A stretch of 18,996 nucleotides of DNA from a virus. Where the stretch lies: the UHGV virus genome UHGV-0130646; one strand, written 5' to 3'. The translations under genes were made by a program, and so were the position numbers. The notes below the pieces were generated by a model. The model did no database searches, was not told the origin of the DNA, and saw only the letters and a list, made by a program, of their open reading frames with translations. Shown here one piece after another: positions 1,664 through 18,996 of this stretch. Every line of letters begins with the position of its first letter. Position 1 is the first letter of the stretch.

Positions 1664-1774
1664 TTTGGCCGCTCCTTCATGAATTGGTATACGCGTTTAG
1701 GTATACATCCTACCGTATACCTAAACGTATACCAATAATCACTGGATTTAGCTGGATATCCTCGGACAACAGTA

Positions 1775-1805
1775 GACACAAAAAAGCCCGCAGAGCTTGT
1801 GCCAT
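1775..1805 (-). terminator. Rho-independent terminator on the minus strand, downstream of the tRNA-like core and upstream of int
   Basis: Minus strand reads GCCCGCA-loop-TGCGGGC followed by TTTTTTGTGT (plus coordinates: A-tract 1775-1780, stem arms 1781-1787 and 1799-1805). Confidence 0.55.
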
Positions 1806-1847
1806 GCGGGCTTTCAGGATTTCTCCGGACGTATCCGGAAGAGCAAG

Positions 1848-1870
1848 TGGTGGAGCTGGCGGAGTTTGAA
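1848..1870 (-). other. att core resembling the 3' end of a tRNA/tmRNA gene
   Basis: Minus strand reads TTCAAACTCCGCCAGCTCCACCA, i.e. T-loop-like, acceptor 3' half and CCA. From memory this resembles the ssrA (tmRNA) 3' terminus and does not match leuX, the P4 target. No complete tRNA gene is present. Confidence 0.5.
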
Positions 1871-2010
1871 TAAATATTGTATTGCTTTGATTTTTAATGA
1901 TTTTGTTTAATTCATTTTTTGTGCGTATACCTAATCGTATACCAATGGCTGTAAGTTAATGTGAAATGAAAGCGCATTTTTACTTGGATTGATGCTATAT
2001 CGTACAGGAA

Positions 2011-2310
2011 AAAAATTTTTTTTCGAAAGAACTGTTCACACTGTTCACCTTTCTGTTTTCTCCTTTTATTTCAGAGTGATAGGTGGTGAATAATGGGTGA
2101 AGGGTGAACATTCGATTCTTCACCTCCGGCATTCTGCCGGTGTGACTCATACCGGTGATTAATCCCCCGTACTGAAATCACTCAGGAAGAAAAAAGTTTT
2201 TTTTGATTTGATTGTTCACACTGTTCACCTTTCGTTTTTCTCTTTTAATTTCAGTATGATAACGGGTGAATATACGGTGAAGGGTGAACAGTGGATTGTT
2301 CACCTGCGGG
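2011..2310. repeat. crr-like cis replication region: two ~120-bp direct repeats (period 180 bp) carrying TGTTCACC/GGTGAACA iterons
   Basis: Copy 1 about 2011-2125 and copy 2 about 2191-2305 align nearly base for base. Each holds several TGTTCAC(C/A) or GGTGAA(CA) octamers. Matches the P4 crr architecture bound by alpha. Confidence 0.75.
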
Positions 2311-2363: not shown

Positions 2364-4697
2364 TCAGGTTGTTGCAGGGTCGTCACATTTTGGCAGCCAG
2401 TCGCCGTAGCTTTCCTCTTTCAGCGTCAGGTTGGTCTGTATCCCCTGTTTGGTATGGCGCTTCTCGTAATTCAGTCCGTATTCCTTCAGCATCACCGGCA
2501 GCCCCAGCCCGAACATTTTCAGACTGAGTACATTCCGGTAGCCGTTTGCCTCCATGTAGGCCAGATAGGCGTGATAGAGGTATTTACGGTAATTGCGCGG
2601 GATGATACTGGCGTTCCCCATATACATGCCGCTGGTCTGCGGCAGGGTTTCCAGATAGCCGATAAAATCAAACGTCGGGTCGGCATCCCGTTTGATGTTC
2701 AGTGCCTCGTCTGAGTTCTGCTGGGACTGAAGCAGTGACCGGGCGAGCATCGGGTCGCTGAACTTCTGCATCAGGTGACGCACGATGACCGCCAGCTCGC
2801 GGGTGATTTTGTCCTTAAGCTGCGGGTCGCGCTCCTGCGGGGCTATCTGTTCCGGGAAGTGAATAATCACCCGCCGGCGTGACACGCCGCCGCTGCGGTC
2901 GGTGAAGCGCATCGGGTTATTGTTCACGGCCAGAATCACCGCCGGGATGTGCGTGGAGTACGCATCCCGGTATTTCGGGTCCACGGACACCGCATCGCCG
3001 CCGGTGATGGCCTTGAGTCCGGCACCGTCGCCGCTCCATTTTTCCTGGTCCGGCAGGCGTATCAGTGAGAAGCCAGTTAACGCGGCACGTTCACGCGGGG
3101 ATTCCAGCGTCTCGATGGTGGCCGACGTGGCGTTATCCTCCCCGGCCAGCAGGGTGGCTATTTCGGCCATGATACTTTTGCCGCTGCCGCCGGGACCGGT
3201 CACCTCCAGAAAGAGCTGCCAGTCGTAGCGGTTTGCCAGCACCATAAACAGTGCGGCCAGAATCACGTCGCGTTTTTCCGCACGGCCACCGGCGGCACGG
3301 TCAAGCCAGCGCCAGAACGCGGGGGCGTGGGTTTCCAGCGTTTCACCGTCCACCGGCGGGGTGAAATCCACATCACACAGGGTACGCATCCAGTGTGACG
3401 GACTGTGCGGGTGGAACGTGCCGTTCTGCGTGTCGAGCACGCCGTTACGAAAGCCAATCAGGCGGCGGGAGGGGGCTTCCTGCTGCGGAATAATCAGCTT
3501 CAGGGTGTCCACCACGGAGGCCACCTTCCCGGAGGAGAACGGCGCACGCAGCCGCTGAAACAGCCCGGCCACATCCCGGGCAAAGTCCTGTGGTGGCAGC
3601 ACCTTCCAGACACCATTTTCATAACGGGACAGAAGCTGGCCGTTGGCATCGACCGCGAGCGCCTCGCCGTAATGCTCATAGATACGCATGGCCTTTTCAC
3701 TGGTACTCATGGCGGAAAACTCCGCTTCGCTCATGGTGTCGAACGGGCTTTCAGCCGGTGGCCGGATGGCATCGTAAATGGCCTTACGGGTGGCTTCCCC
3801 GCCGTACTGCGTGAAGGCATCATTCCAGTCACCGAAGACCGGCGGCAGGGCAACAACACCTTCACACGCATCTGCGGCTGCGGCGGCTTTTTTCTGGCCG
3901 TCACCGCTGAGGTCACGGTCTGCGGCAAGGACAATCTGACAGGCCGGATGCTTCTGCCGGGCAAGGCTGGCCAGAGAAAGGAGGTTCACGGAAGAAAGCG
4001 CCACCATCACCGTTTCACCGGTCAGGTGATGTACGGTAAGTGCGGTCGCGTATCCCTCCGCTATCCACAGACGTTTTCCGGCCTGATTCTGTCCTTCAAG
4101 GATGTGACAGGTGCCCCTGACCTGCCCGCCTTTCAGGGTGCGCTTACGGCCGTCAGCGCTGATTAACTGAAGGTTAACAAGTTCGCCGCTGTCGTCATAC
4201 AGTGGCACCACAAGGTCACCGGCGCGCCAGCTCACGCCACCGGCTCTGTGTGTGCCGGTCAGCATCCGGCATTCCCGGCCGGGAAAGCCCTTGCGGGTCA
4301 GGTAGGCGTTACCGGTTCCGGTACGGGTTTTCGCCATCAGGGTTTGTGCCAGTGCGGCGGCGTTCTTCCGGGCAGCGTCTGTTTCAGCACCGGCGGCGGC
4401 CGTCACTGCCGGGTCAGCCGGGGGCAGGCTGCCGGTCACGGCAGCCACCTTTGTGGCCGCGTCGGACGGGGAGACACCAAACACCTTTTCAACCAGTTTC
4501 AGGCCGTCACCGGCACCACACTGATTGCAGTACCAGGTGCCGCGCCCCTCCCTGTCATCAAAACGGAAGCGGTCACTCCCGCCACAGACCGGACAGGGCT
4601 GATGACGGTTTTTCAGCACCTGAATCCCCAGCGCCGGGAGGATACGCGGCCAGTGGCCGAGCGCATGGCTGACGGTGGCGGTTACGTTCATTTTCAT
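2364..4697 (-). CDS. alpha: DNA primase-helicase (P4 alpha type)
   Basis: 777-aa ORF, the same length as P4 alpha. N-terminal zinc-binding motif CPVCGG...YCNQCG, a primase/TOPRIM-like middle region, and a C-terminal Walker A motif (GPGGSGKS). Confidence 0.92.
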   Translation of the reverse strand: MKMNVTATVSHALGHWPRILPALGIQVLKNRHQPCPVCGGSDRFRFDDREGRGTWYCNQCGAGDGLKLVEKVFGVSPSDAATKVAAVTGSLPPADPAVTAAAGAETDAARKNAAALAQTLMAKTRTGTGNAYLTRKGFPGRECRMLTGTHRAGGVSWRAGDLVVPLYDDSGELVNLQLISADGRKRTLKGGQVRGTCHILEGQNQAGKRLWIAEGYATALTVHHLTGETVMVALSSVNLLSLASLARQKHPACQIVLAADRDLSGDGQKKAAAAADACEGVVALPPVFGDWNDAFTQYGGEATRKAIYDAIRPPAESPFDTMSEAEFSAMSTSEKAMRIYEHYGEALAVDANGQLLSRYENGVWKVLPPQDFARDVAGLFQRLRAPFSSGKVASVVDTLKLIIPQQEAPSRRLIGFRNGVLDTQNGTFHPHSPSHWMRTLCDVDFTPPVDGETLETHAPAFWRWLDRAAGGRAEKRDVILAALFMVLANRYDWQLFLEVTGPGGSGKSIMAEIATLLAGEDNATSATIETLESPRERAALTGFSLIRLPDQEKWSGDGAGLKAITGGDAVSVDPKYRDAYSTHIPAVILAVNNNPMRFTDRSGGVSRRRVIIHFPEQIAPQERDPQLKDKITRELAVIVRHLMQKFSDPMLARSLLQSQQNSDEALNIKRDADPTFDFIGYLETLPQTSGMYMGNASIIPRNYRKYLYHAYLAYMEANGYRNVLSLKMFGLGLPVMLKEYGLNYEKRHTKQGIQTNLTLKEESYGDWLPKCDDPATT

Positions 4698-4711: not shown

Positions 4712-5032
4712 TCAGTGCAGTACCGGCGCTTTTATGTGACGGGCACAGAGTTCATCCATCACAACCAGCCCGAGAAAGGACAGCGACGGCGCGGCCTTCA
4801 GGGGGCCGGATTCCATTAAATCTTCCAGCAGGGCACAGGCTATCTGACGCCCTTTTTCCTCACCGTGCTGGCGCAGATAAAAGCCTTCCAGCTCAGCGGC
4901 GATGGCCGCCTCCAGTGATTCAAGGGTGAGATGCGGGTAGCGGTGCTGACGTTCGCACACGGTCAGCCAGGCACAGGCGACAGCGCGACGGTAAAGGGCA
5001 GCGCGTAAGACGGGCGGTAAGGGTGTTTTCAT
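4712..5032 (-). CDS. P4 orf106-like hypothetical protein
   Basis: 106-aa ORF immediately upstream of alpha in the same operon, with GGAGG 7 nt upstream of the ATG. Position and length match P4 orf106 as recalled. Confidence 0.65.
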
Positions 5033-5167
5033 TTGCTTTCCTCCCTGTGACAGATGACTGCATTCCGTGCCGGTTGCATTAACTGATAAGGCATATCTGC
5101 GTCTCCTGAAGACGTGCGTATCCCTGCGCGAATACGCACATTTAATTTTTCGGGTGTCGTTTTTTAA

Positions 5168-5623
5168 TTACAGATAATTGCGGTAACTGTTATCCGGGGT
5201 GATTTCCGGGTCAGGCTCCGTGCGGGGAATTTCCCGCCATTCCCGCGCCACCGGTGCTGCCCGGCTGACCGGAACAGGGTCCTGCGGGTAAATATCCAGA
5301 TATTTCTCACGCCATTTCTGTAATTCCGGGTCTCCGGCCATTTCTTTCAGTACCGCATGCCGGTTTACGGGGCTGCGTTTGAACAGGTCAGGACGGTCAC
5401 AGGTAAATTCCCGCAGAAAACGCCCCAGCGGGATGTCTGTGGTGCGCCCGTCAGCGAGGATACGCACAAGGATACTGAATTTACGGCGGTACGGGTTCCA
5501 GACAATGTCCGGGCAGCGGTACGGCATTTCCCACGGAATACCGTCTTCCAGAATGCCGACCACGGCCACATCGGGAAAACCGGCAGAACGGTAAATCTCA
5601 CCGGGCTGGGGAAAATCAAACAT
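5168..5623 (-). CDS. P4 orf151-like hypothetical protein
   Basis: 151-aa ORF in the left operon; its start overlaps the stop of the upstream 95-aa ORF by 8 nt. Position and length match P4 orf151. Confidence 0.65.
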   Translation of the reverse strand: MFDFPQPGEIYRSAGFPDVAVVGILEDGIPWEMPYRCPDIVWNPYRRKFSILVRILADGRTTDIPLGRFLREFTCDRPDLFKRSPVNRHAVLKEMAGDPELQKWREKYLDIYPQDPVPVSRAAPVAREWREIPRTEPDPEITPDNSYRNYL

Positions 5624-5903
5624 GCGTCCTGTCTCCCCGGTCTTTCTGCTGGGCGAGAAAATCGCGGCACAGGCCTTTGGCTTTCAGCTCATTCAGCACA
5701 AAATCAATATCTTCATTCAGGTAACTGAAAATATGCGGAATGTAGAGCTGATGCAGGCCGGAGAGTTCACGGTGAATCAAATCCCCCCCAACAAACCGGG
5801 ATACGGCGCTGGCGCGGTTGAGCTTATGGTAAGCCTCAATGCTGAGGTGTTCACGGGCGTCATGACGCGCTGAGACGGTCTGAGGGGCTTTTTTATTACG
5901 CAC
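5616..5903 (-). CDS. Small left-operon protein, possibly an epsilon-like antirepressor
   Basis: 95-aa ORF translationally coupled to orf151. Assignment to epsilon is positional only; identity is uncertain. Confidence 0.45.
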
Positions 5904-6495
5904 GGGACACCTCCATCACCGGCAGACGGGCAGCAAGGGAGAGCACATAGTCACGGACAAGGGAACGGCGGGCGCTGCGTTCATCACCGGCGACGGTGCG
6001 AAGCATACAGATACGGGGATGACGGTCTGCGCGACGGACAGCCGCAAACACAAAGACAAATTCAGGGTGTGAGGGGGTAAGGGTCGTAGCCATAAGGCAG
6101 CCTCCTTCGAGTAGCAAATAACTGCTATCGCCGGAGTTTCCACGCTCAATGGCGATAGCCCAGACGGGGGTGGAAATACCGGCCTCGAAGAATACCGGCC
6201 AGCCCGGAGGCTGCCCCGCCTGAGCTACCATTGACTCTGCGGCATAATGAGCGGACGCGGGCAGGATGCACGGAATGCCATCTGCACGACTGACCACACA
6301 CCACACCATAATCTGGCGCTCTGTGGCGTTGATTGCGACACAAAAAAAGACGCATGGCGCGTCATATGTCGCCTTCGAGTTACACGGGTTTCCACGCCCG
6401 GCTGCCGATTTTGCGGCAGCGGAAAAACTATATCCGCAAATGCCGGAAAAAGGCAAGCCAGAAAAAGGGACTTTTTGCAGAGCGGGCATCATCAT
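5896..6495 (-). CDS. orf199-like reading frame spanning the immunity region (kil-like N-terminus?); coding status uncertain
   Basis: Three in-frame ATGs (minus-strand ATGATGATG, plus 6487-6495) overlap the vis stop and give a 199-aa frame. In P4 this interval holds kil and the CI RNA immunity determinant, so the long ORF may not be fully translated. Confidence 0.3.
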
Positions 6496-6758
6496 GCGTC
6501 GTACCCCCGTTTGCGTCCGGCAATGCGCCCGGCCATCCATGCGGTGACTTCAGAGTGCAGCCAGGCCACATTTTTACCGCCAAGACTCACCTGCGGCGGA
6601 AATTCCCCCTTACGGATGAGTTCATAGATGGTCGAGCGTGACAGGCCGCACAGGTGCATCACTTCCGGCAGACGTAAAAAACGCTCCTGCGTGATGTCCG
6701 GCAGCGGCATCAGTGGCGTCACAGGGGCGGGAGACGGGGAAGAAAAAACAGCTTGCAT
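6492..6758 (-). CDS. vis: Vis / AlpA-family helix-turn-helix regulator (excisionase-like)
   Basis: 88-aa ORF with an AlpA-type HTH ([44 protein letters not shown]). GAGGT lies 5 nt upstream of the ATG. Confidence 0.8.
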
Positions 6759-7310: not shown

Positions 7311-8045
7311 ATGTCTGACAACACCATCCCTGAATATCTGCAACCCGCACTGGCACAACTGGAAAAGGCCAGAGCCGCTCATCTTGAGAACGCCCGCCTG
7401 ATGGATGAGACCGTCACGGCCATTGAACGGGCAGAGCAGGAAAAAAATGCGCTGACGCAGGCCGACGGAAACGACGCTGACGACTGGCGCACGGCCTTTC
7501 GTGCAGCCGGTGGTGTCCTGAGCGACGAGCTGAAACAGCGCCACATTGAGCGCGTGGCACGCCGGGAGCTGGTACAGGAATATGACAATCTGGCCGTGGT
7601 GCTGAATTTTGAACGCGAACGCCTGAAAGGGGCGTGTGACAGCACGGCCACCGCCTACCGGAAGGCACATCATCACCTTCTGAGTCTGTATGCAGAGCAT
7701 GAGCTGGAACACGCCCTGAATGAAACCTGTGAGGCGCTTGTCCGGGCAATGCATCTGAGCATTCTGGTACAGGAAAATCCGCTCGCCAACACCACCGGCC
7801 ATCAGGGCTACGTCGCACCGGAAAAGGCTGTCATGCAGCAGGTGAAATCATCGCTGGAACAGAAAATTAAACAGATGCAAATCAGTCTCACCGGCGAGCC
7901 GGTTCTCCGGCTGACCGGACTGTCAGCGGCAACACTCCCGCACATGGATTATGAGGTGGCAGGCACACCGGCACAGCGCAAGGTGTGGCAGGACAAAATA
8001 GACCAGCAGGGTGCAGAGCTTAAGGCCAGAGGACTGCTGTCATGA
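7311..8045 (+). CDS. sid: Capsid size determination protein Sid (external scaffold)
   Basis: 244 aa from the ATG at 7311 (GAGGAG 6 nt upstream); the ORF track's GTG at 7293 is probably not the start. Coiled-coil-rich translation; stop overlaps the delta start. Length matches P4 Sid. Confidence 0.88.
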   Translation: MSDNTIPEYLQPALAQLEKARAAHLENARLMDETVTAIERAEQEKNALTQADGNDADDWRTAFRAAGGVLSDELKQRHIERVARRELVQEYDNLAVVLNFERERLKGACDSTATAYRKAHHHLLSLYAEHELEHALNETCEALVRAMHLSILVQENPLANTTGHQGYVAPEKAVMQQVKSSLEQKIKQMQISLTGEPVLRLTGLSAATLPHMDYEVAGTPAQRKVWQDKIDQQGAELKARGLLS

Positions 8046-8542
8046 TTTACTGCCCGTCGTGTGGACATGTTGCTCACACCCGTCGCGCACATTTCATGGA
8101 CGATGGCACCAAGATAATGATTGCACAGTGCCGGAATATTTATTGCTCTGCGACATTTGAAGCGAGTGAAAGCTTTTTCTCTGACTGTAAAGATTCAGGA
8201 ATGGAATACATTTCAGGCAAACAGAGATACCGCGATTCACTGACTTCTGCCTCCGGCAGTATGAAACGCCCGAAAAGAATGCTTGTTACCGGATATTGTT
8301 GTCGGAGATGTAAAGGCCTTGCACTGTCAAGAACATCGCGGCGTCTGTCTCAGGAAGTCACCGAACGTTTTTATGTGTGCACGGATCCGGGCTGTGGTCT
8401 GGTGTTTAAAACGCTTCAGACCATCAACCGCTTCATTGTCCGCCCGGTCACACCGGACGAACTGGCAGAACACCTGCATGAAAAACAGGAACTGCCGCCA
8501 GTACGGTTAAAAACACAATCATATTCGCTGCGTCTGGAATGA
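8042..8542 (+). CDS. delta: Late-gene transcriptional activator Delta (tandem Ogr-type zinc finger)
   Basis: 166 aa with two Ogr-like Cys4 halves (CPSCG...C..YC and CCRRC...CTDPGC). Length matches P4 Delta. Confidence 0.88.
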   Translation: MIYCPSCGHVAHTRRAHFMDDGTKIMIAQCRNIYCSATFEASESFFSDCKDSGMEYISGKQRYRDSLTSASGSMKRPKRMLVTGYCCRRCKGLALSRTSRRLSQEVTERFYVCTDPGCGLVFKTLQTINRFIVRPVTPDELAEHLHEKQELPPVRLKTQSYSLRLE

Positions 8543-8615
8543 GGGCTGCCGGTTAACACCGGCCGTCGCCGCACACCGTATTTTTATTCTTCAGCATGAT
8601 GAGAAAGAGATAACG

Positions 8616-9188
8616 ATGGAAAGCACAGCCTTACAGCAGGCCTTTGACACCTGTCAGAATAACAAAGCAGCATGGCTGCAACACAAAAATGAGCTGGCAG
8701 CGGCCGAACAGGAATACCTGCGGCTTCTGTCAGGAGAAGGCAGAAACGTCAGTCGCCTGGACGAATTACGCAATATTATCGAAGTCAGAAAATGGCAGGT
8801 GAATCAGGCCGCCAGTCGTTATATTCGTTCGCATGAAGCCGTTCAGCACATCAGCATCCGCGACCGGCTGAATGATTTTATGCAGCAGCACGGCACAGCA
8901 CTGGCGGCGGCACTGGCACCGGAGCTGATGGGCTACAGTGAGCTGACGGCCATTGCCCGAAACTGTGCCATACAGCGTGCCACAGATGCCCTGCGTGAAG
9001 CCCTTCTGTCCTGGCTTGCGAAGGGGGAAAAAATTAATTATTCCGCACAGGATAGCGACATTTTAACGACCATCGGATTCAGGCCTGACGCGGCTTCGGT
9101 GGATGACAGCCGTGAAAAATTCACCCCTGCGCAGAACATGATTTTTTCGCGTAAAAGTGCGCAACTGGCATCACATCAGTCTGTGTAA
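8616..9188 (+). CDS. psu: Polarity suppression / capsid decoration protein Psu
   Basis: 190 aa; N-terminus MESTALQQAFDTCQNNKAAWLQ matches my recollection of P4 Psu. Last gene before cos. Confidence 0.88.
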   Translation: MESTALQQAFDTCQNNKAAWLQHKNELAAAEQEYLRLLSGEGRNVSRLDELRNIIEVRKWQVNQAASRYIRSHEAVQHISIRDRLNDFMQQHGTALAAALAPELMGYSELTAIARNCAIQRATDALREALLSWLAKGEKINYSAQDSDILTTIGFRPDAASVDDSREKFTPAQNMIFSRKSAQLASHQSV

Positions 9189-9230
9189 AATTCCCCGAAA
9201 ATCCGCCCGTTTTTACTGAAAAAAGCCATG

Positions 9231-9265
9231 CATCGATAAGGTGCATGGCTTTGCATGCGTTTTCC
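9231..9265 (+). terminator. Rho-independent terminator downstream of psu
   Basis: GCCATGCA (9235-9242), 9-nt loop, TGCATGGC (9252-9259), followed by TTTGCATGCGTTTT. Confidence 0.55.
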
Positions 9266-9352
9266 TGCCTCATTTTCTGCAGACCGCGCCATTCCCGGCG
9301 CGGCCTGAGCGTGTCAGTGCAACTGCATTGAAACCGCCCCGCAAAGCGGGCG

Positions 9353-9371
9353 GGCGAGGCGGGGAAAGCAC
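9353..9371. other. cos site: 19-nt P2/P4 cohesive-end sequence
   Basis: GGCGAGGCGGGGAAAGCAC matches the P2/P4 cohesive end as I recall it. It is uninterrupted, so this is a cos junction and not a mature genome end. Confidence 0.8.
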
Positions 9372-9502
9372 TGCGCGCTGGCGGTGGTGCTGATTTTATT
9401 TTTTAGCGTCTCAGCGCGTCGTGATGGCGTTTAGATTGTGCGCCGGGGCGTTGGTGTGTCTGCGGGCTGTTTTGTGCGGTGGTGAGCGTGTGAGGGCGTG
9501 AT

Positions 9503-9524
9503 GACGGGGTGTAAAAAAGCCGCC
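9503..9524 (-). terminator. Rho-independent terminator downstream of Q (minus strand)
   Basis: GCCGCC / GGCGGC stem (9509-9524) followed on the minus strand by T6 (plus-strand A-run 9503-9508). Confidence 0.5.
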
Positions 9525-9539
9525 CGCAGGCGGCGATGT

Positions 9540-10574
9540 TCAGCCGTTGTCAGTGTCCAGTGAGTAGTTTTTAAAGCGGATGACCTCCTGACCGAGCCAG
9601 CCGTTTATTTCCCGAATCCTGTCCTGTAACGGGATAAGCTCATTGCGGACAAAGACCTTTGCCACTTTCTCAATATCGCCCAGCGACCCGACGTTCTCCG
9701 GCTTGCCGCCCATCAACTGAAAGGGGATGCGGTGCGCGTCCAGCAGGTCTGCGGCACTGGCTTTTTTGATATTAAAAAAATCGTCCTTCGTCGCCACTTC
9801 ACTGAGCGGGATAATTTTGATGCCGTCTGGCTTTCCCTGTGGTGCATAGAGAAACAGATTATTAAAGTTATTGCGTCCTTTCGACCTGGCCATGTTTTCG
9901 CGAAGTGAGTCAATGTAATCGCGATCCTGCAATGCGTCAGTGATATACATGATATATCCGGCATGTGCGCCGTTTTCGTAATACTTGCGGCGGAACAGCG
10001 TGGCCGACTCATTCAGCCAGGCGGAGTTAAGGGCGCTGAGATATTCCGGCAGGCCGTACAGCTCCTGATTAATATCAGGCTCCAGCAGGTGAAACACGGA
10101 GCCGGGCGCGAAGGCTGTCGGCTCGTTGAAGGACGGCACCCACCAGTAAACATCCTCTTCCACGCCACGACGGGTATATTTTGCCGGTGAGGTTTCCAGT
10201 CTGATGATCTTACCGGTAGTGCTGTAACGCTTTTCCAGAAACGCATTACCGAACACCAGAAAATCCAGCACAAAGCGGCTGAAATCCTGCTGGGAAAGCC
10301 ACGGGTGCGGGATAAACGTTGAGGCCAGAATATTACGTTTGACGTAAATCGGTGAGCTGTGATGCACGGCAGCACGCAGGCTTTTTGCCAGACCGGTAAA
10401 GCTGATTGGTGGCTCATACCATCTGCCGTTACTGATGCACTCGACATAATCCAGAATGTCACGGCGGTCGAGTACCGGCACCGGCTCACCAAAGGTGAAT
10501 GCCGCCATTTTCGGGGCGCTGGCGGTCATTTTTTTTGCCGCAGGTTGCGGTGTTTTCCCTTTTTTCTTGCTCAT
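9540..10574 (-). CDS. Q: Portal protein (P2 gpQ type)
   Basis: 344 aa, same length as P2 Q, with a lysine-rich N-terminus. Start overlaps the P stop in a TGATG arrangement. Confidence 0.9.
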   Translation of the reverse strand: MSKKKGKTPQPAAKKMTASAPKMAAFTFGEPVPVLDRRDILDYVECISNGRWYEPPISFTGLAKSLRAAVHHSSPIYVKRNILASTFIPHPWLSQQDFSRFVLDFLVFGNAFLEKRYSTTGKIIRLETSPAKYTRRGVEEDVYWWVPSFNEPTAFAPGSVFHLLEPDINQELYGLPEYLSALNSAWLNESATLFRRKYYENGAHAGYIMYITDALQDRDYIDSLRENMARSKGRNNFNNLFLYAPQGKPDGIKIIPLSEVATKDDFFNIKKASAADLLDAHRIPFQLMGGKPENVGSLGDIEKVAKVFVRNELIPLQDRIREINGWLGQEVIRFKNYSLDTDNG

Positions 10575-12346
10575 CAGTAAAACTCCAGAATGGTGGATGT
10601 CAGCGGGGTGCTGATACCGGCGGTGAGTGGCTCATTTAACAGGGCGTGCATGGTCGCCCAGGCGAGGTCGGCGTGGCTGGCTTCCTCGCTGCGGCTGGCC
10701 TCATAGGTGGCGCTGCGCCCGCTGCTGGTCATGGTCTTGCGGATAGCCATAAACGAGCTGGTGATGTCGGTGGCGCTGACGTCGTATTCCAGACAGCCAC
10801 GGCGGATAACGTCTTTTGCCTTGAGCACCATTGCGGTTTTCATTTCCGGCGTGTAGCGGATGTCGCGCGCGGCGGGATAGAACGAGCGCACGAGCTGGAA
10901 CACGCCGACACCGAGGCCGGTGGCATCAATACCGATGTATTCGACGTTGTATTTTTCGGTGAGTTTGCGGATGGATTCAGCCTGGGTGGCAAAGTCCATG
11001 CCTTTCCACTGGTGACGCTCAAGTATTCTGAATTTGCCACCGGCCACCACCGGCGGTGCCAGCACCACGCATCCGGCGCTGTCGCCACGGTGTGACGGGT
11101 CGTAACCAATCCATACCGGGCGGGAGCCGAACGGATTCGCGGCAAACGGCGCATAGTCTTCCCATTCTTCCAGCGTGTCGACCATGCAGCGTTGCAGCTC
11201 CTCGAACGGGAACACCGACGCCTTGTCGTCAACAAATTCACACATGAACAGGTTTTTAAAATCGTCGGCGCTGTTTTCGCGTTTAAGCTGCTCAATGTCG
11301 AACAGCGTGCAGCCGCCTTTCAGGGCGTCCTCAATGGTGACAATCTGCCGCCACTGGCCGTCCGCACAGAGAAGCCCACCGGCAAGGGCGTTATGACTGA
11401 CGTCGATTTCCACGCGTTCGGCGGCGCTGGCGCGTCCCCGGTTGAACAGTTCACCCGACCAGAACGGATAGGCGTCGTGCGCCAGCGTGGACGGGGTGGA
11501 GAAATAGGTCGAGCGCAGGTGACTCTGTGAGGCCATACCTGATGCCACCTTACGCAGTACCTGAAAATTCGGGATCCAGAAAATCTCATCGACGTACAGG
11601 TCGCCGTTATGGCTCTGCGCGGTGTTGGAGTTGGTGCCGAGAAAAATCAGTTTTGCGCCGTTATTGCCCAGGACAATCGGGTCACCGGTCAGGTCAACGT
11701 CAACCAGCCGGGCAAAGGCGATGATGTATTCGCGGAACACATACGCCTGCGTTTTACTGGCCGACAGAAAAATCTGGTTATGACCGGTTTTCAGGGCGCG
11801 CAGCAGCGCCTCGCGGGAAAAATAAAACGTCGCGCCAATCTGGCGGGATTTCAGGATATCGCGGATACGGTGCTCAAGCCCGGCGCGATACCAGTGCAAC
11901 TGATATTCGAAAGACTGCTCAAAGAAAATCTGCTCCAGCTTTTCGATAGCCTCGTCACTGAAAAAATTCTTTTTCGGTTTGCGACGCCCGCCTTTGTTGC
12001 GGTTAGCGACGTTCGGATTAAGGTCTGCCTCGTTGCCGGTCTGACTGTAGCGGTTGACCCGCGCCAGCCGTTCAATCTGGCGTCCCAGCAGGTCAATTTC
12101 CTTGAAGTCACCGCCGGTTTTCTGCGGTTTGATGATGAGCTGGGTCAGCCGCGCTTCCAGACTCATTTCGACACGGCTGATGGGGGCAACGCTGTCCCAG
12201 CCGTCGCGCTGTTTCCAGCTCTGCACCGTCGGGCGTTTCATCTGCAACATGGCGGCAATCTGCGGCACGGAAAATCCCTGCCAGTACAGCAGCGCCGCCT
12301 GACGACGCGGGTCGTGTAAAAGAGTGGTGTCTGTGGTGATGGTCAT
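10574..12346 (-). CDS. P: Terminase large (ATPase) subunit (P2 gpP type)
   Basis: 590 aa from the internal ATG at 12346 (MTITTDTTLL..., GAGGT upstream), matching P2 P; the ORF track's 600-aa start is probably too far upstream. Confidence 0.9.
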   Translation of the reverse strand: MTITTDTTLLHDPRRQAALLYWQGFSVPQIAAMLQMKRPTVQSWKQRDGWDSVAPISRVEMSLEARLTQLIIKPQKTGGDFKEIDLLGRQIERLARVNRYSQTGNEADLNPNVANRNKGGRRKPKKNFFSDEAIEKLEQIFFEQSFEYQLHWYRAGLEHRIRDILKSRQIGATFYFSREALLRALKTGHNQIFLSASKTQAYVFREYIIAFARLVDVDLTGDPIVLGNNGAKLIFLGTNSNTAQSHNGDLYVDEIFWIPNFQVLRKVASGMASQSHLRSTYFSTPSTLAHDAYPFWSGELFNRGRASAAERVEIDVSHNALAGGLLCADGQWRQIVTIEDALKGGCTLFDIEQLKRENSADDFKNLFMCEFVDDKASVFPFEELQRCMVDTLEEWEDYAPFAANPFGSRPVWIGYDPSHRGDSAGCVVLAPPVVAGGKFRILERHQWKGMDFATQAESIRKLTEKYNVEYIGIDATGLGVGVFQLVRSFYPAARDIRYTPEMKTAMVLKAKDVIRRGCLEYDVSATDITSSFMAIRKTMTSSGRSATYEASRSEEASHADLAWATMHALLNEPLTAGISTPLTSTILEFY

Positions 12347-12519: not shown

Positions 12520-13374
12520 ATGGCAAAAAAAGTCTCAAAATTCTTTCGTATCGGCGTTGAGGGTGACACCTGTGACGGGCGTGTCATCAGTGCGCAGGAT
12601 ATTCAGGAAATGGCCGAAACCTTTGACCCGCGAGTCTATGGTTGCCGCATTAACCTGGAACATCTGCGCGGCATCCTGCCTGACGGTATTTTTAAGCGTT
12701 ATGGCGATGTGGTCGAACTGAAGGCCGAAAAGATTGACGATGATTCGGCGCTGAAAGGCAAATGGGCGCTGTTTGCGAAAATCACCCCGACCGATGACCT
12801 TATCGCGATGAACAAGGCCGCGCAGAAGGTCTATACCTCAATGGAAATTCAGCCGAACTTTGCCAATACCGGCAAATGTTATCTGGTGGGTCTGGCCGTC
12901 ACCGATGACCCGGCAAGCCTCGGCACGGAATACCTGGAATTCTGCCGCACGGCAAAACACAACCCCCTGAACCGCTTCAAATTAAGCCCTGAAAACCTGA
13001 TTTCAGTGGCAACGCCCGTTGAGCTGGAATTTGAAGACCTGCCTGAAACCGTGTTCACCGCCCTGACCGAAAAGGTGAAATCCATTTTTGGCCGCAAACA
13101 GGCCAGCGATGACGCCCGTCTGAATGACGTGCATGAAGCGGTGACCGCTGTTGCTGAACATGTGCAGGAAAAACTGAGCGCCACTGAGCAGCGCCTCGCT
13201 GAGATGGAAACCGCCTTTTCCGCACTTAAGCAGGATGTGACTGACAGGGCGGATGAAACCAGCCAGGCATTCACCCGCCTGAAAAACAGTCTCGACCACA
13301 CCGAAAGTCTGACCCAGCAGCGCCGCAGCAAGGCCACCGGTGGTGGCGGTGACGCCCTGATGACGAACTGCTGA
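12520..13374 (+). CDS. O: Capsid scaffolding protein (P2 gpO type)
   Basis: 284 aa from the ATG at 12520 (MAKKVSKFFRIGVEGDT...), matching P2 O; the ORF track's upstream start at 12454 is probably wrong. Confidence 0.88.
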   Translation: MAKKVSKFFRIGVEGDTCDGRVISAQDIQEMAETFDPRVYGCRINLEHLRGILPDGIFKRYGDVVELKAEKIDDDSALKGKWALFAKITPTDDLIAMNKAAQKVYTSMEIQPNFANTGKCYLVGLAVTDDPASLGTEYLEFCRTAKHNPLNRFKLSPENLISVATPVELEFEDLPETVFTALTEKVKSIFGRKQASDDARLNDVHEAVTAVAEHVQEKLSATEQRLAEMETAFSALKQDVTDRADETSQAFTRLKNSLDHTESLTQQRRSKATGGGGDALMTNC

Positions 13375-13432
13375 CCGGCGTCAGTCAGTCCGGGAAAACC
13401 TTCACGATTAACCCTTAATTTCAGGAAAAACT

Positions 13433-14506
13433 ATGCGCCAGGAAACCCGCTTTAAATTTAATGCCTACCTGTCCCGTGTTGCCGAACTGAACGGCATCGA
13501 CGCCGGTGATGTGTCGAAAAAATTCACCGTTGAACCGTCGGTCACCCAGACCCTGATGAACACCATGCAGGAGTCCTCTGATTTTCTGACCCGCATCAAC
13601 ATTGTGCCGGTCAGCGAAATGAAAGGGGAAAAAATTGGTATTGGTGTCACCGGCTCCATCGCCAGCACCACAGACACCGCCGGTGGCACCGAGCGTCAGC
13701 CGAAGGACTTCTCGAAGCTGGCGTCAAACAAGTACGAATGCGACCAGATTAACTTCGATTTTTATATCCGCTACAAAACGCTGGACCTGTGGGCGCGTTA
13801 TCAGGATTTCCAGCTCCGTATCCGTAACGCCATTATCAAACGCCAGTCCCTTGATTTCATCATGGCCGGTTTTAACGGCGTGAAGCGTGCCGAAACCTCT
13901 GACCGCAGCAGCAATCCGATGCTGCAGGATGTGGCGGTCGGCTGGCTGCAGAAATACCGCAATGAAGCCCCGGCGCGCGTGATGAGCAAGGTCACTGACG
14001 AGGAAGGCCGCACCACCTCTGAGGTTATCCGCGTGGGTAAGGGCGGTGATTATGCCAGCCTTGATGCACTGGTGATGGATGCGACCAACAACCTGATTGA
14101 GCCGTGGTATCAGGAAGACCCTGACCTTGTGGTGATTGTGGGACGTCAGCTACTGGCGGACAAGTATTTTCCCATCGTCAACAAGGAGCAGGACAACAGC
14201 GAAATGCTGGCCGCTGACGTCATCATCAGCCAGAAACGCATCGGTAACCTGCCGGCGGTACGCGTCCCGTACTTCCCGGCGGATGCGATGCTCATCACGA
14301 AGCTGGAAAACCTGTCCATCTACTACATGGATGACAGCCATCGCCGCGTGATTGTGGAAAACCCGAAACTCGACCGCGTGGAGAACTACGAGTCAATGAA
14401 CATTGATTACGTGGTGGAGGACTACGCCGCCGGTTGTCTGGTGGAAAAAATTAAGGTCGGTGATTTCTCCACACCGGCTAAAGCGACCGCAGAGCCGGGA
14501 GCGTAA
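13433..14506 (+). CDS. N: Major capsid protein (P2 gpN type)
   Basis: 357 aa, same length and position as P2 N. Confidence 0.9.
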   Translation: MRQETRFKFNAYLSRVAELNGIDAGDVSKKFTVEPSVTQTLMNTMQESSDFLTRINIVPVSEMKGEKIGIGVTGSIASTTDTAGGTERQPKDFSKLASNKYECDQINFDFYIRYKTLDLWARYQDFQLRIRNAIIKRQSLDFIMAGFNGVKRAETSDRSSNPMLQDVAVGWLQKYRNEAPARVMSKVTDEEGRTTSEVIRVGKGGDYASLDALVMDATNNLIEPWYQEDPDLVVIVGRQLLADKYFPIVNKEQDNSEMLAADVIISQKRIGNLPAVRVPYFPADAMLITKLENLSIYYMDDSHRRVIVENPKLDRVENYESMNIDYVVEDYAAGCLVEKIKVGDFSTPAKATAEPGA

Positions 14507-14509
14507 CCG

Positions 14510-15253
14510 ATGACGAGTCCCGCACAGCGCCACATGATGCGGGTCTCGGCAGCGATGACCGCGCAGCGGGACGCCGCCCCGCTGCGACATGCAACTGTCT
14601 ATGAGCAGATGCTGGTCAAGCTGGCCGCAGACCAGCGCACACTGAAAGCGATTTATTCAAAAGAGCTGAAGGCCGCGAAAAAACGCGAACTGCTGCCGTT
14701 CTGGTTGCCGTGGGTGAACGGCGTGCTGGAGCAGGGCAAAGGTGCACAGGATGACATTCTGATGACGGTCATGCTGTGGCGTCTGGATACCGGCGATATT
14801 GCCGGTGCGCTGGAGATTGCCCGTTATGCCCTGAAGTACGGTCTGACCATGCCGGGTAAACACCACCGCACCCCGCCGTACATGTTCACCGAGGAGGTGG
14901 CGCTTGCGGCCATGCGCGCCCACGCGGCCGGTGAGTCTGTGGATACCCGCCTGCTGACGGAGACCCTTGAACTGACTGCCGCTGCTGACATGCCTGATGA
15001 AGTGCGCGCAAAGCTGCACAAAATCACCGGTCTGTTTCTGCGTGACGCTGGTGATGCCGCAGGGGCGCTGGCGCATCTGCAACGTGCGACACAGCTCGAC
15101 TGTCAGGCAGGCGTCAAAAAAGAGATTGAACGACTGGAGCGGGAGCTGAAACCGAAGCCGGAGCCGCAGCCAAAAGCGGCCACCCGTACCCCGCGTAAGA
15201 CCCGGAGCGTGACACCGGCAAAACGTGGACGCCCGAAAAAGAAAGCCAGTTAA
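14510..15253 (+). CDS. M: Terminase small (endonuclease) subunit (P2 gpM type)
   Basis: 247 aa with a basic C-terminal tail (KRGRPKKKAS); follows N after a 3-bp gap, as in P2. Confidence 0.88.
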   Translation: MTSPAQRHMMRVSAAMTAQRDAAPLRHATVYEQMLVKLAADQRTLKAIYSKELKAAKKRELLPFWLPWVNGVLEQGKGAQDDILMTVMLWRLDTGDIAGALEIARYALKYGLTMPGKHHRTPPYMFTEEVALAAMRAHAAGESVDTRLLTETLELTAAADMPDEVRAKLHKITGLFLRDAGDAAGALAHLQRATQLDCQAGVKKEIERLERELKPKPEPQPKAATRTPRKTRSVTPAKRGRPKKKAS

Positions 15254-15352
15254 CAACCGAATGCGCCCCGCGCCAGGGCGGCACGCCGGTCAGTGAGGGT
15301 GAATCACCTGACACTGCACCGGCGTCCACCGCCCGACTTTTCAGAGGTAGTC

Positions 15353-15862
15353 ATGATGACGCTGATTATTCCGCGAAAGGAGGCTCCCGTGTCCGGTGAG
15401 GGTACGGTGGTCATCCCGCAACCGGCAGGCGACGAGCCGGTGATTAAAAACACGTTCTTTTTTCCCGATATCGACCCGAAGCGCGTCCGGGAACGTATGC
15501 GCCTTGAGCAGACCGTCGCCCCCGCCCGTCTGCGTGAGGCTATCAAGTCAGGCATGGCGGAGACAAATGCGGAGCTGTACGAGTATCGCGAACAGAAAAT
15601 TGCCGCCGGTTTTACGCGTCTGGCGGACGTCCCGGCGGACGACATCGACGGTGAAAGCATCAAAGTTTTTTACTACGAGCGCGCCGTGTGTGCGATGGCG
15701 ACCGCGTCGCTTTATGAGCGTTATCGCGGCGTGGATGCCAGTGCCAAGGGCGACAAGAAGGCCGACAGCATTGACCGCACCATTGATGAGCTGTGGCGGG
15801 ATATGCGCTGGGCAGTGGCGCGCATCCAGGACAAGCCGCGCTGCATCGTGAGTCAAATCTGA
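15353..15862 (+). CDS. L: Head completion / stabilisation protein (P2 gpL type)
   Basis: 169 aa from the ATG at 15353 (GAGGTAG upstream), matching P2 L; stop overlaps the X start. Confidence 0.85.
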   Translation: MMTLIIPRKEAPVSGEGTVVIPQPAGDEPVIKNTFFFPDIDPKRVRERMRLEQTVAPARLREAIKSGMAETNAELYEYREQKIAAGFTRLADVPADDIDGESIKVFYYERAVCAMATASLYERYRGVDASAKGDKKADSIDRTIDELWRDMRWAVARIQDKPRCIVSQI

Positions 15863-16065
15863 TGAAGACCTTTGCGCTACAGGGCGACACGCTCGACGCC
15901 ATTTGTGTCCGGTATTACGGGCGCACTGAGGGCGTGGTTGAGGCCGTGCTCGCCGCAAATCCGGGACTGGCTGAACTGGGTGCTGTGCTGCCACACGGCA
16001 CCGCCGTCGAACTGCCCGACGTTCAGACCGCGCCCGTGGCTGAAACTGTCAATCTGTGGGAGTAA
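15862..16065 (+). CDS. X: Tail protein X (P2 gpX type, LysM-like)
   Basis: 67 aa (MKTFALQGDTLDAICVRYYGRTEGVVEAVLAANPGLAELG...). Below the ORF-track threshold when counted from the correct start. Confidence 0.8.
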   Translation: MKTFALQGDTLDAICVRYYGRTEGVVEAVLAANPGLAELGAVLPHGTAVELPDVQTAPVAETVNLWE

Positions 16066-16068
16066 CGC

Positions 16069-16350
16069 ATGACAGCAGAAGAAAAAAGCGTCCTGTCGCT
16101 TTTCATGATTGGGGTGCTGATTGTTGTCGGCAAGGTGCTTGCCGGTGGTGAACCCATCACCCCGCGTCTGTTTATCGGGCGCATGTTGCTTGGTGGTTTT
16201 GTCTCGATGGTTGCCGGTGTTGTTCTGGTGCAGTTTCCTGACCTGTCACTGCCTGCGGTGTGCGGTATCGGCTCCATGCTGGGTATCGCCGGTTATCAGG
16301 TGATTGAGATTGCCATCCAGCGCCGCTTTAAGGGCAGGGGGAAACCGTAA
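16069..16350 (+). CDS. Y: Holin (P2 gpY type)
   Basis: 93 aa with hydrophobic transmembrane segments and a charged C-terminus. Confidence 0.85.
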   Translation: MTAEEKSVLSLFMIGVLIVVGKVLAGGEPITPRLFIGRMLLGGFVSMVAGVVLVQFPDLSLPAVCGIGSMLGIAGYQVIEIAIQRRFKGRGKP

Positions 16351-16847
16351 TGCCGGTTATTAACACGCATCAGAATATCGCCGCCTTTCTCGACATGCTG
16401 GCCGTGTCCGAAGGGACGGCGAATCATCCGCTGACGAAAAACCGGGGCTATGACGTGATAGTCACCGGACTGGACGGAAAGCCGGAAATTTTCACCGACT
16501 ACAGTGACCACCCGTTCGCGCATGGCCGACCGGCGAAGGTGTTTAACCGTCGCGGTGAAAAATCCACGGCCTCCGGTCGCTATCAGCAGCTTTACCTGTT
16601 CTGGCCGCACTACCGCAAACAGCTTGCCCTGCCGGATTTCAGTCCGTTGTCACAGGACAGGCTCGCCATTCAGTTGATCCGCGAACGCGGTGCACTGGAT
16701 GACATCCGGGCGGGACGCATTGAGCGCGCCATTTCACGCTGTCGCAATATCTGGGCGTCCCTGCCGGGTGCCGGTTACGGTCAGCGTGAGCATTCACTGG
16801 AAAAACTGGTCACCGTCTGGCGTACCGCCGGCGGTGTACCGGCTTAA
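16350..16847 (+). CDS. K: Endolysin (P2 gpK type)
   Basis: 165 aa, immediately after the holin; length and position match P2 K. Confidence 0.88.
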   Translation: MPVINTHQNIAAFLDMLAVSEGTANHPLTKNRGYDVIVTGLDGKPEIFTDYSDHPFAHGRPAKVFNRRGEKSTASGRYQQLYLFWPHYRKQLALPDFSPLSQDRLAIQLIRERGALDDIRAGRIERAISRCRNIWASLPGAGYGQREHSLEKLVTVWRTAGGVPA

Positions 16848-16861
16848 ACGGAGTAAACACC

Positions 16862-17287
16862 ATGAAGAAATTATCCCTTTCACTGATGCTGAACGTGTCG
16901 CTGGCGCTGATGCTGGCACTGTCCCTGATTTACCCGCAGAGCGTGGCCGTCAATTTTGTCGCCGCCTGGGCGATTCTGGCGACGGTTATCTGTGTGGTTG
17001 CCGGTGGTGTCGGCGTGTATGCCACTGAGTATGTGCTGGAACGCTACGGGCGGGAGCTTCCGCCGGAATCGCTGGCCGTGAAGATTGTCACGTCGCTGTT
17101 TTTGCAGCCGGTGCCGTGGCGCAGACGGGCAGTAGCTCTGGTGGTGATGGTGGCGACATTTATCTCGCTGGTCGCTGCCGGGTGGATTTTTACCGCGCTG
17201 ATTTATCTCGTGGCATCGGTGTTCTTCCGGCTGATACGTACGGCCTGCCGTCAGCGTTTTGAGGGGCGGGAACCATGTCAAGGCTGA
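16862..17287 (+). CDS. lysA: Lysis timing membrane protein LysA
   Basis: 141 aa, strongly hydrophobic with several predicted TM segments; position matches P2 lysA. Confidence 0.8.
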   Translation: MKKLSLSLMLNVSLALMLALSLIYPQSVAVNFVAAWAILATVICVVAGGVGVYATEYVLERYGRELPPESLAVKIVTSLFLQPVPWRRRAVALVVMVATFISLVAAGWIFTALIYLVASVFFRLIRTACRQRFEGREPCQG

Positions 17288-17700
17288 TGATTGTGCTGGT
17301 CGTGTTGTTATCGCTGGCGGTGGCGGGTCTGTTTCTGGCGAAGCATAAAAACGCCAGCCTGCGCACCTCACTGGACAGGGCAAACAACGTAGCCAGCGAG
17401 CAACAGGCGACCATCACCATGCTGAAAAATCAGCTTCATGTTGCGCTCACCAGGGCAGACAAAAACGAGCTGGCGCAGGTGGCACTGCGTCAGGAACTGG
17501 AAAACGCCGCGAAGCGTGAAGCTCAGCGCGAGAAAACCATCACGAGATTACTCAATGAAAACGAAGATTTCCGCCGCTGGTATGGCGCTGACCTGCCTGA
17601 TGCTGTGCGCCGGTTGCACCAGCGCCCCGCCTGCACCGACGCCAGTGATTGTCCACAACGCCTGCCCGAAAGTGAGCCTTTGCCCGATGCCGGGCAGTGA
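17275..17700 (+). CDS. lysB: Rz-like inner-membrane spanin LysB
   Basis: 141 aa with an N-terminal TM anchor and a coiled-coil periplasmic domain; overlaps the lysA end. Confidence 0.8.
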   Translation: MSRLMIVLVVLLSLAVAGLFLAKHKNASLRTSLDRANNVASEQQATITMLKNQLHVALTRADKNELAQVALRQELENAAKREAQREKTITRLLNENEDFRRWYGADLPDAVRRLHQRPACTDASDCPQRLPESEPLPDAGQ

Positions 17701-17845
17701 CCCGCAGACGAACGGCGATTTAAGTGCCGATATCCGGCAGCTTGAGAACGCGCTGGCACACTGTGCCAGCCAGATAAAAATGATTAAACACTGTCAGGAC
17801 GAAAACGATGCTCAAACCCGACAGCCTGCGCAGGGCGCTGACTGA
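17555..17845 (+). CDS. lysC: Rz1-like outer-membrane lipoprotein spanin LysC, starting inside lysB in another frame
   Basis: 96 aa from the internal ATG at 17555; signal peptide with lipobox LCAGC and a proline-rich mature region. Embedded out of frame in the 3' part of lysB. Confidence 0.75.
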   Translation: MKTKISAAGMALTCLMLCAGCTSAPPAPTPVIVHNACPKVSLCPMPGSDPQTNGDLSADIRQLENALAHCASQIKMIKHCQDENDAQTRQPAQGAD

Positions 17846-18275
17846 TGCCGTCACGGTGCTGAAAACCAGTCCCGAGATGTTGCGGATATTCGTGGATAAC
17901 GGAAGTATTGCCTCCACACTGGCGACGTCGCTGTCATTCGAAAAGCGTTACACGCTCAATGTGATTGTGACCGACTTTACCGGTGATTTTGACCTGCTCA
18001 TTGTGCCGGTGCTGGCGTGGCTGCGGGAAAATCAGCCCGACATCATGACCACCGACGAAGGCCAGAAAAAAGGCTTCACGTTTTATGCAGACATCAACAA
18101 TGACAGCAGCTTTGATATCAGTATCAGCCTGATGCTGACCGAACGCACGCTGGTCAGTGAGGTGGGCGGCGCGCTGCATGTGAAGAATATCCCGGAACCC
18201 CCGCCGCCGGAGCCGGTCACCCGCCCGATGGAGCTTTATATCAATGGCGAACTGGTGAGTAAGTGGGATGAATGA
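17808..18275 (+). CDS. R: Tail completion protein (P2 gpR type)
   Basis: 155 aa, same length and position as P2 R. Confidence 0.85.
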   Translation: MLKPDSLRRALTDAVTVLKTSPEMLRIFVDNGSIASTLATSLSFEKRYTLNVIVTDFTGDFDLLIVPVLAWLRENQPDIMTTDEGQKKGFTFYADINNDSSFDISISLMLTERTLVSEVGGALHVKNIPEPPPPEPVTRPMELYINGELVSKWDE

Positions 18276-18791: not shown

Positions 18792-18996
18792 TTATGAGTG
18801 ATTTTTATTTGATGCTTTGTATTCTACAACCTTCTTATTGGCGTAAAGGAATTTTGTATATGACAGAAATATAACCAGGCCTGAAATGAAATAGATGAGG
18901 GATATTATTAATAATGCTTTTTTTTGGCTGTTATTATCTTTAATTTCCTGACTTAACCATTCCGAGTCCTCCTCGTTTAGCCGTAAGAGCTTATTG
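18792..18996 (-). CDS. Hypothetical small membrane protein, 5'-truncated at the window edge; AT-rich ORF at the S-V variable position
   Basis: Minus-strand frame is open from the window edge to the stop at 18792-18794 (67 codons in window: ...SQKKALLIISLIYFISGLVIFLSYTKFLYANKK...), with one predicted TM helix. Not in the ORF track because no start codon lies within the window. Confidence 0.45.
   Translation of the reverse strand, partial: NKLLRLNEEDSEWLSQEIKDNNSQKKALLIISLIYFISGLVIFLSYTKFLYANKKVVEYKASNKNHS

Follow-up and report, generated by a model that had tools for sequence, protein, structure and literature searches.

In native P4-like satellites, psu and cos are followed by cargo genes and then by int (17 places), and in native P2-like prophages a variable accessory region stands before the cos-Q segment, with gpA beyond it (14 prophages). 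These are the layouts that the initial annotation of the DNA analysed here had already taken to be canonical for satellite and helper. Helper-independent P4::P2 hybrids are said to have been built in the laboratory by Lindqvist in 1981. The cos site of the satellite is cut by the terminase of the helper, a point for which Ziermann and Calendar (1990) are cited in PMC9122126, and since the satellite cos is recognised by the helper terminase, the two genomes have identical cohesive ends of 19 nt. The speculation of Rousset et al. 2022 (PMC9122126) is that P2-like and P4-like elements may recombine through their cos ends, and recombination of this kind was proposed to drive turnover of the defence hotspots found next to cos in the two types of element.

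The window, by which we mean the whole stretch of DNA analysed (18,996 bp), is the entire contig ena:ERZ783044:NODE_1_length_18996_cov_3.842617 in reverse orientation. The contig name is of the SPAdes style and gives a k-mer coverage of 3.84 for NODE_1 of ERZ783044. There are no Ns in the window and the cos region is unbroken. Across the junction, psu ends with its stop at 9188, the 19-nt cohesive end ggcgaggcggggaaagcac lies at 9353-9371, and Q starts on the minus strand from 9540, so that the genes called and the cohesive end bear out the psu-cos-Q order and both gene boundaries read earlier from the sequence. Window position 9353 is the first base of the linear records of P2-like phages such as HQ103 and L-413C, and 9352 is the last base of the linear P4 record. 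The contig is best read as two separate replicons joined at cos, and psu-cos-Q most probably does not represent a genuine genetic element.

The satellite and helper parts of the contig

Left of 9344, the window is a known ssrA-integrating P4-like satellite with 99.9% identity to the element of E. coli GMF065. It codes for neither capsid nor terminase, and it holds the complete core set of a P4-like satellite, comprising integrase, alpha, epsilon, an AlpA-like gene, sid, delta and psu, together with a C4-type CI RNA with its targets and a helper-type cos beside psu. The exact Int and Psu proteins recur in many Salmonella and E. coli genomes in a single fixed arrangement: smpB, ssrA, int, a 248-aa gene, a 273-aa gene, cos, psu, delta, sid ... 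alpha. The contig begins within the cargo gene of 248 aa, of which only the 3' part is present (10..429, plus strand); the gene is annotated in the GMF065 lysogen (locus L064) at 10978..11724, and family searches with it gave no confident family. The satellite integrase (464..1663, minus strand; 399 aa) is ssrA-targeting and contains the Pfam domains Arm-DNA-bind_3, Phage_int_M and Phage_integrase; the exact protein adjoins smpB/ssrA in Salmonella Typhi Ty2 and in E. coli.

An intact attP (1688..1945) is followed by the cis replication region crr (2010..2309), which has two 120-bp repeats and aligns to P4 4291-4590, annotated as crr. The alpha primase-helicase (2364..4697, minus strand; 777 aa; Pfam Zn_Ribbon_Prim, Toprim_3, D5_N and Pox_D5) matches P4 alpha. 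The early and immunity region (4712..6758, minus strand) contains orf106, orf151, epsilon (5616..5903, minus strand), the cI/ash ORF (5896..6309, minus strand), the CI RNA (6148-6235; Rfam C4 antisense RNA, 76.7 bits) and orf88/AlpA (6492..6758, minus strand), and its Pfam families are DUF5375, Derepression, Phage_ASH and Phage_AlpA. Targets of the CI RNA are found at 6343-6433 (Rfam isrK, 74.2 bits, and c4-a1b1, 51.1 bits), and the Rfam scores for the RNA and its targets all exceed the gathering scores. The plus strand carries sid (7311..8045), coding for the capsid size-determination scaffold of 244 aa, which has a 98% DNA match to P4 sid and is annotated as sid in L064, the late-gene activator delta (8042..8542; Pfam Ogr_Delta) and psu (8616..9188; Pfam Psu, 292 bits). 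The satellite-type right end (9189..9343) that follows is the same as in native satellites.

Base-level alignment to lysogen L064 places both attachment arms of the satellite in the window. Positions 1-1870 equal L064 11296-13165, which is the int/attR side, and positions 1848-9378 equal the attL side through psu and cos; the window tracks attR through TGGTGGAGCTGGCGG and then attL from GCTGGCGGAGTTTGAA. The attP core TGGTGGAGCTGGCGGAGTTTGAA (1848-1870), with the crossover at 1855-1862, is an imperfect reverse complement of the 3' end of ssrA, and the arm repeats gtatacc..gtataccaat flank it on either side. The attL and attR of L064 have just 8 exact nt in common (1855-1862), and because this is shorter than any assembly k, the attP is not a graph artefact; a second assembler mis-join at this point is thereby ruled out. 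Furthermore, no tmRNA or tRNA gene was found in the window and the attP is exact, with the left arm of attR and the right arm of attL, which rules out an integrated prophage beside another island. As an exact excision product, the attP indicates that the satellite was free in the sample, in circular or packaged form, and such a free satellite probably had cohesive or circularised ends. A closed satellite circle would measure 10,642 bp, of which 1,265 bp of cos-proximal cargo (L064 10031-11295) are missing from the contig. A tandem integration of helper and satellite at ssrA was rejected as the source of psu-cos-Q, since in the tandem arrays of loci L014 and L015 the phage abuts the int end of the satellite rather than psu-cos.

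Right of 9378, the window is the left arm of a P2-like prophage at 98.4% identity, and the whole of 9312-18996 is colinear with P2-like prophages of E. coli at that same identity. The cos site, the divergent Q-P and O-N-M-L genes, the lysis genes, R and S together identify a P2-like helper (Peduovirus). The helper-type left end (9379..9539), which is the P2-like sequence from cos to Q, differs by one base from locus L021. It is followed by Q, coding for the portal protein (9540..10574, minus strand; 344 aa; Pfam Phage_portal), and by P, coding for the large terminase (ATPase) subunit (10574..12346, minus strand; Pfam Terminase_6N/6C). The exact P protein is present in 26,576 collection blocks, with a normal P2 context in 10 of the 10 places displayed. 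The P2-like late genes O, N, M, L, X, holin, endolysin, lysA, lysB, lysC, R and S (12520..18720, plus strand) are assigned by Pfam (Phage_GPO_N, Phage_cap_P2, Phage_term_smal, Phage_GPL, P2_Phage_GpR and Phage_tail_S) and by colinearity with L021 at 98.4%. The contig stops within an AT-rich accessory gene between S and V, of which only the start is present (18792..18996, minus strand).

The cos core and the occurrence of the junction

The switch from satellite to helper is confined to 9344-9378, as the window matches the native satellite up to 9378 and the native P2-like prophage from 9344. These 35 nt, made up of 9 nt, the 19-nt overhang and 7 nt, form a cos core common to satellite and helper that holds both the crossover and the cohesive end, and they are the sole exact sequence that the two elements of the window have in common. 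The initial annotation had suggested that alignment of the cos flanks would locate the crossover, and comparison with native satellites and P2-like prophages does place it in this interval; the shared cos region of ~50 bp that it had assumed is too long for an exact repeat, since only 35 nt are identical. Left of cos, the window is identical to satellite L003 in 170 of 170 nt. Native satellites turn into their own cargo 7 nt past the cohesive end, with complete divergence from 9379 (~60 loci), and helpers diverge from the satellite starting 10 nt to the left of cos. The base at 9343 is an A in all ~60 satellite loci and a G in 14 of 14 helpers, and the window carries the satellite-specific A; position -10 from the cut thus offers a single-base marker for left flanks of cos, with A being satellite-type and G helper-type. 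The native satellite junction reads psu-cos-AATATGTTGATCAC and the native helper junction accessory-cos-TGGCGGTGGTG.

The 19-nt cohesive end is identical in the ~60 satellite loci and the 14 helpers, and the exact stretch across cos that the satellite has in common with each of these helpers measures 26-36 nt (35 nt for the closest ones). No helper with a psu-cos-like right arm that would give a repeat of >55 nt was found, the maximum among the 14 helpers being 36 nt. The conserved side of the cut differs between the elements: in satellites ~170 nt are conserved on the psu side and just 7 nt opposite, and in helpers it is the Q side that is conserved. The hybrid cos of the window keeps each base that is conserved in satellites and in helpers, and, judged by its sequence, it would probably be cut by terminase if it exists as DNA. 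The position of the crossover fits homologous exchange, cohesive-end joining and a graph mis-join alike and does not by itself discriminate between them. As in a chimera, the breakpoint lies inside sequence identical in both parents (9344-9378), and on either side the contig is colinear with a parent known as an element of its own, at 99.9% and 98.4% identity.

Searches for the junction covered complete genomes, phage records and metagenomic collections. With a 2-kb query across psu-cos-Q, none of the 5,426 complete E. coli genomes covered both sides, and the result was the same with the whole window; at least one side, in the form of Q and/or psu homologues, is present in 2,292 of these genomes. 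Neither query found the junction among 50,697 phage records. A pattern composed of the psu end, a gap of 150-180 nt, cos and the P2 left end occurred neither in IMG/VR nor in the GTDB representatives, and the control pattern without the P2-specific tail returned 39 native satellites from IMG/VR. In the same collection, a diagnostic-base pattern for a satellite-left/helper-right junction gave no hit, nor was the reciprocal junction of a helper left side with the cargo of this satellite found there, and the native helper junctions that served as control numbered at least 120. In all, IMG/VR yielded at least 159 native cos junctions and 0 heterologous ones. Within the window itself there is no second joint, be it helper right arm-cos-cargo or P2 late region-satellite left arm.

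The sole other public case of the junction is a contig referred to here as L075 (ERZ835980 NODE-29637; 1,863 bp, coverage 2.31), the single match in the metagenome collection. It is made up of half of psu, cos, the P2 left end and part of Q, and its alleles differ from those of the window (95.9% identity), so that it represents an independent occurrence. In the largest ORF of L075, the first two thirds of a ThrE-family exporter run into the C-terminal half of Psu. A metagenome locus whose neighbourhood is firmicute-like matches the ThrE part at 94.5% identity; the only named relative of this part comes from a Faecalibacterium prausnitzii MAG, and comparison with E. coli at megablast sensitivity gave no counterpart. 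The switch from ThrE to psu takes place at GCACTGGCGGCGGCACTGGCA, a stretch of 21 nt that is identical to psu and has one base different from the nearest native ThrE relative, with 17 nt exact. An artefact of assembly is the best reading of this cross-phylum fusion in mid-gene at 17-21 nt. By default, the smallest k in SPAdes is 21, and the fusion of L075 at a stretch of ~21 nt means that such assemblies do mis-join at repeats of about that length. The junction thus recurs just once, and in an assembly with demonstrable mis-joining at short repeats.

Origin of the psu-cos-Q join

On balance, the join is probably the work of the assembler, which would have fused an excised P4-like satellite (~10.6 kb) to a P2-like helper at the 35-nt cos core. 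We infer the following course of events. Two replicons, the excised satellite with its ssrA-type integrase and its P2-like helper, would both have been in the sample, and at a k-mer coverage of ~3.8x the true neighbours of cos may have remained uncovered, these being the AT-rich left arm of the satellite and the accessory region of the helper, for which we propose a similarly AT-rich composition. Under-coverage of such AT-rich DNA would leave native edges at cos missing from the graph, those of the satellite at least. In the low-k stages (k=21 or 33) of a multi-k de Bruijn assembly, the cos core would then form an unbranched bridge from psu to Q, and the psu-cos-Q path obtained at low k would be carried into the final contig.

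The composition of the contig bears on this course of events. Its GC content is 29.5% at the left end and 33% at the right end, both ends lying inside accessory genes, and 50-64% in the remainder; the missing 1,265-bp arm of the satellite has 32.5% GC, and the first 100 nt past cos have 24%. A Poisson model with a k-mer coverage of 3.84, K=55 and a length of 19 kb predicts 6.5-37 breaks, and the contiguity of the contig would therefore lean in places on lower-k contigs, for which the 35 nt are a repeat in the graph, an argument that assumes default multi-k SPAdes settings. The final k of metaSPAdes is usually 55. The 35-nt repeat is at least as long as k=21 and k=33 and shorter than 55, with the reservation that the actual k of the assembler may differ, and a plain collapse at a final k of 55 would therefore not explain the join. 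This counts against an assembler mis-join, which would require carry-over from k=21 or 33, as does the genuine attP, since with a free satellite a physical end-to-end join is possible too. The mis-join is favoured by the confinement of the switch to 35 nt, the very low coverage, the absence of the junction from finished genomes and the chimeric nature of L075. Among the three explanations put forward in the initial annotation, the collapse of an assembly on the shared cos is accordingly the one that gains from the comparison.

Beside those three there is a fourth option, in which identical cohesive ends are ligated end to end and give spanning reads without a heritable link. Such a physical, non-heritable join, with the right end of the satellite annealed to the left end of the helper and sealed by ligase either during library preparation or by the host after co-injection or abortive packaging, is a strong rival, though less likely than the mis-join. 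Satellite and helper have the same cos overhang, which falls entirely within the crossover interval, and with overhangs that are identical and non-palindromic, satellite right end to helper left end is the sole heterologous join allowed, which is the orientation seen. The attP as a true excision product means that free satellite DNA was present, and with a final k that is usually 55, a repeat of just 35 nt favours genuine spanning reads. Rousset et al. 2022 (PMC9122126) moreover propose that the joining of cos ends between P2-like and P4-like elements gives rise to recombination. However, the contig with the sole other case of the junction also contains an unrelated mis-join between phyla, an indication of software rather than chemistry, and the at least 159 native cos junctions of IMG/VR are accompanied by no heterologous one. 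At low DNA concentration, as in this 4-6x sample, intramolecular ring closure should also outcompete intermolecular joins, an expectation that comes from general polymer knowledge and speaks against annealing between two molecules.

Whether by the assembler or via annealed ends, the 35-nt cos core can bridge helper and satellite in low-coverage short-read assemblies, and metagenome contigs that combine a satellite with its helper should therefore not be taken for hybrids unless reads support the join.

We consider it unlikely that the psu-cos-Q molecule is real, either as a propagating P2::P4 cointegrate or hybrid or as the outcome of an in vivo swap of terminase-cut cohesive ends; if the junction were real, the satellite would be physically linked to the structural genes that it parasitises. 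The heritable forms, namely a cointegrate, a nested satellite or a single-cos hybrid, have little probability even when taken together. In a cointegrate, or with the satellite lodged inside a helper prophage, the circular satellite would have recombined with the helper at cos by a homologous or terminase-mediated route, and the heritable product would have the layout helper right arm-cos-satellite-cos-Q with two cos sites. The intact attP is as expected for entry via cos rather than via att, the hybrid cos retains all conserved bases, and beyond the left end of the contig there is space for the missing 1,265 bp and for another cos. Nevertheless, this arrangement is improbable: the junction is absent from all 5,426 E. 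coli genomes, including the 2,292 with Q and/or psu homologues, and from the phage records, the GTDB representatives and IMG/VR, the last of which does not contain the reciprocal junction either, the homology available amounts to just 35 bp, and a circle with two cos sites would be expected to resolve into two genomes in each round of packaging. The hybrid or cointegrate and the nested satellite, which the initial annotation had listed with the assembly collapse, thus find no comparative support in E. coli genomes, in the 50,697 phage records or in IMG/VR. A natural P4::P2 hybrid phage with a single cos, in which satellite replication and regulation replace the P2 early region beside the P2 late genes, is very improbable, since none occurs among the 50,697 phage records or in IMG/VR and the second novel joint that it requires is absent from the window, even if the one cos between psu and Q agrees with it and ~25 kb of P2 late genes with ~9.4 kb of satellite would be expected to fit a P2-size head.

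Comparison with known satellites, helpers and hybrids

The satellite of the window is P4-like, but it is not P4 itself. Phage P4 (NC_001609) is 98.2% identical from crr to the right cohesive end, with P4 4291-11624 corresponding to window 2010-9352. The two differ in integrase and attachment site, with 399 aa at ssrA in the window and 440 aa at leuX in P4, and the satellite of the window is without the P4 cargo genes gop, beta and cII. Its closest relatives are the ssrA satellites, such as those of GMF065 (NZ_CM183923.1 1199240-1209904) and Salmonella Typhi Ty2 (AE014613), and window 1-9378 is an element of the GMF065 type at 99.9% identity. The int gene, the attP arms, crr, alpha, epsilon, the CI RNA, sid, delta, psu, cos and the cargo gene are common to the window and these satellites. 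In the genomes, the ssrA satellites are integrated, with attL and attR, and their cos is followed by their own 273-aa and 248-aa cargo genes, whereas the window has a rejoined attP, and Q of the P2-like part comes after its cos.

On the helper side, the P2-like prophage of E. coli DETEC-P881 (NZ_CP116100.1) is colinear with window 9312-18996 at 98.4% identity, from cos through Q and P to R and S. In P2-like prophages, that of DETEC-P881 included, cos is preceded by the variable accessory (defence) region and gpA, whereas in the window it is preceded by psu.

The P4::P2 hybrids reportedly made in the laboratory resemble the window in having satellite and helper on one cos-bounded molecule. They differ in that they are said to have been constructed or selected and verified as phage, whereas the window is a low-coverage contig with no second joint. 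The turnover of defence hotspots described by Rousset et al. 2022 (PMC9122126) is an evolutionary hypothesis whose intermediates are yet to be observed, and the window is known from a contig alone. The product expected from a swap of cohesive ends between satellite and helper is psu-cos-Q, and if such a swap had taken place in vivo, the window would be the first intermediate to be seen of the cos-end recombination proposed there (PMC9122126).

Satellite attachment site and linkage to a helper-family prophage, apparently at ssrA

The attP of the satellite is the exact product of excision. Its core lies at 1848-1870, with the crossover placed within 1855-1862. Arm repeats flank it on both sides, one set near 1688-1735 and the other near 1923-1945. 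The core sequence, GGCGGAGTTTGAA, mimics the genuine ssrA 3' end, GGCGGGAGTTGAA, imperfectly, and attL and attR of the lysogen E. coli GMF065 have only 8 exact bases in common.

At two native satellite loci, a prophage of the P2/186 family directly adjoins the satellite integrase (L014 1-11200, GCA_013893255.1; L015 1-11200, GCA_032968665.1). This prophage carries genes for gpA, a CI-type repressor and a 337-aa integrase, and it apparently stands in tandem with the satellite at ssrA. At these loci, a phage of the helper's family and the satellite are genuinely linked on the chromosome, but not via cos.

Bases flanking cos and a second psu-cos-Q contig

Position 9343, at -10 from the cos cut, is an A in all of the approximately 60 P4-like satellite loci examined, whereas the corresponding base is a G in the P2-like prophages (14 of 14 examined). 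Among the loci examined, this base is a fixed one-base distinction between satellites and helpers. In the satellites, conservation around the overhang extends for about 170 nt toward psu but for just 7 nt on the opposite side.

The sole other public contig with a psu-cos-Q arrangement (L075, ERZ835980 NODE-29637) contains a chimeric ORF at 953-1681, in which a Faecalibacterium-like gene for a ThrE exporter is joined to the C-terminal half of psu. At the fusion point, 21 nt are identical to psu and 17 nt match the nearest native ThrE relative exactly. This ORF, from a publicly available metagenome, is clearly an artefact of assembly that joins sequences of different phyla.

Gene calls of cI/ash and Q

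The cI/ash ORF of the window (5896-6540) is called as a gene of 137 aa, while its longest ORF encodes 214 aa; in near-identical satellites, it is called at 137, 184, 196 or 199 aa. These differences in length may stem from the choice of start codon or from frameshifts. The exact Q (portal) protein (9540-10574) is found in no other contig of an index of 153 billion genes, and the terminase protein next to it is present there in 26,576 blocks. Q may be unique because it is a rare allele, or because the consensus contains errors at a coverage of 3.8x.

Accessory genes of helper and satellite

Between helper genes S and V lies an AT-rich 261-aa gene on the opposite strand (18792-18996, where the right end of the contig falls inside it, and 13480-14265 in the related P2-like prophage L021), making this interval a possible further accessory slot. 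The satellite cargo consists of two genes of about 30% GC, encoding 273 and 248 aa (10-429, and 10160-11724 in the lysogen locus L064). Searches against Pfam and PADLOC assigned them to no confident family, the sole match being a weak one to the candidate system PDC-S25 (E=1e-5). Both cargo genes sit where P4 has its defence hotspot.
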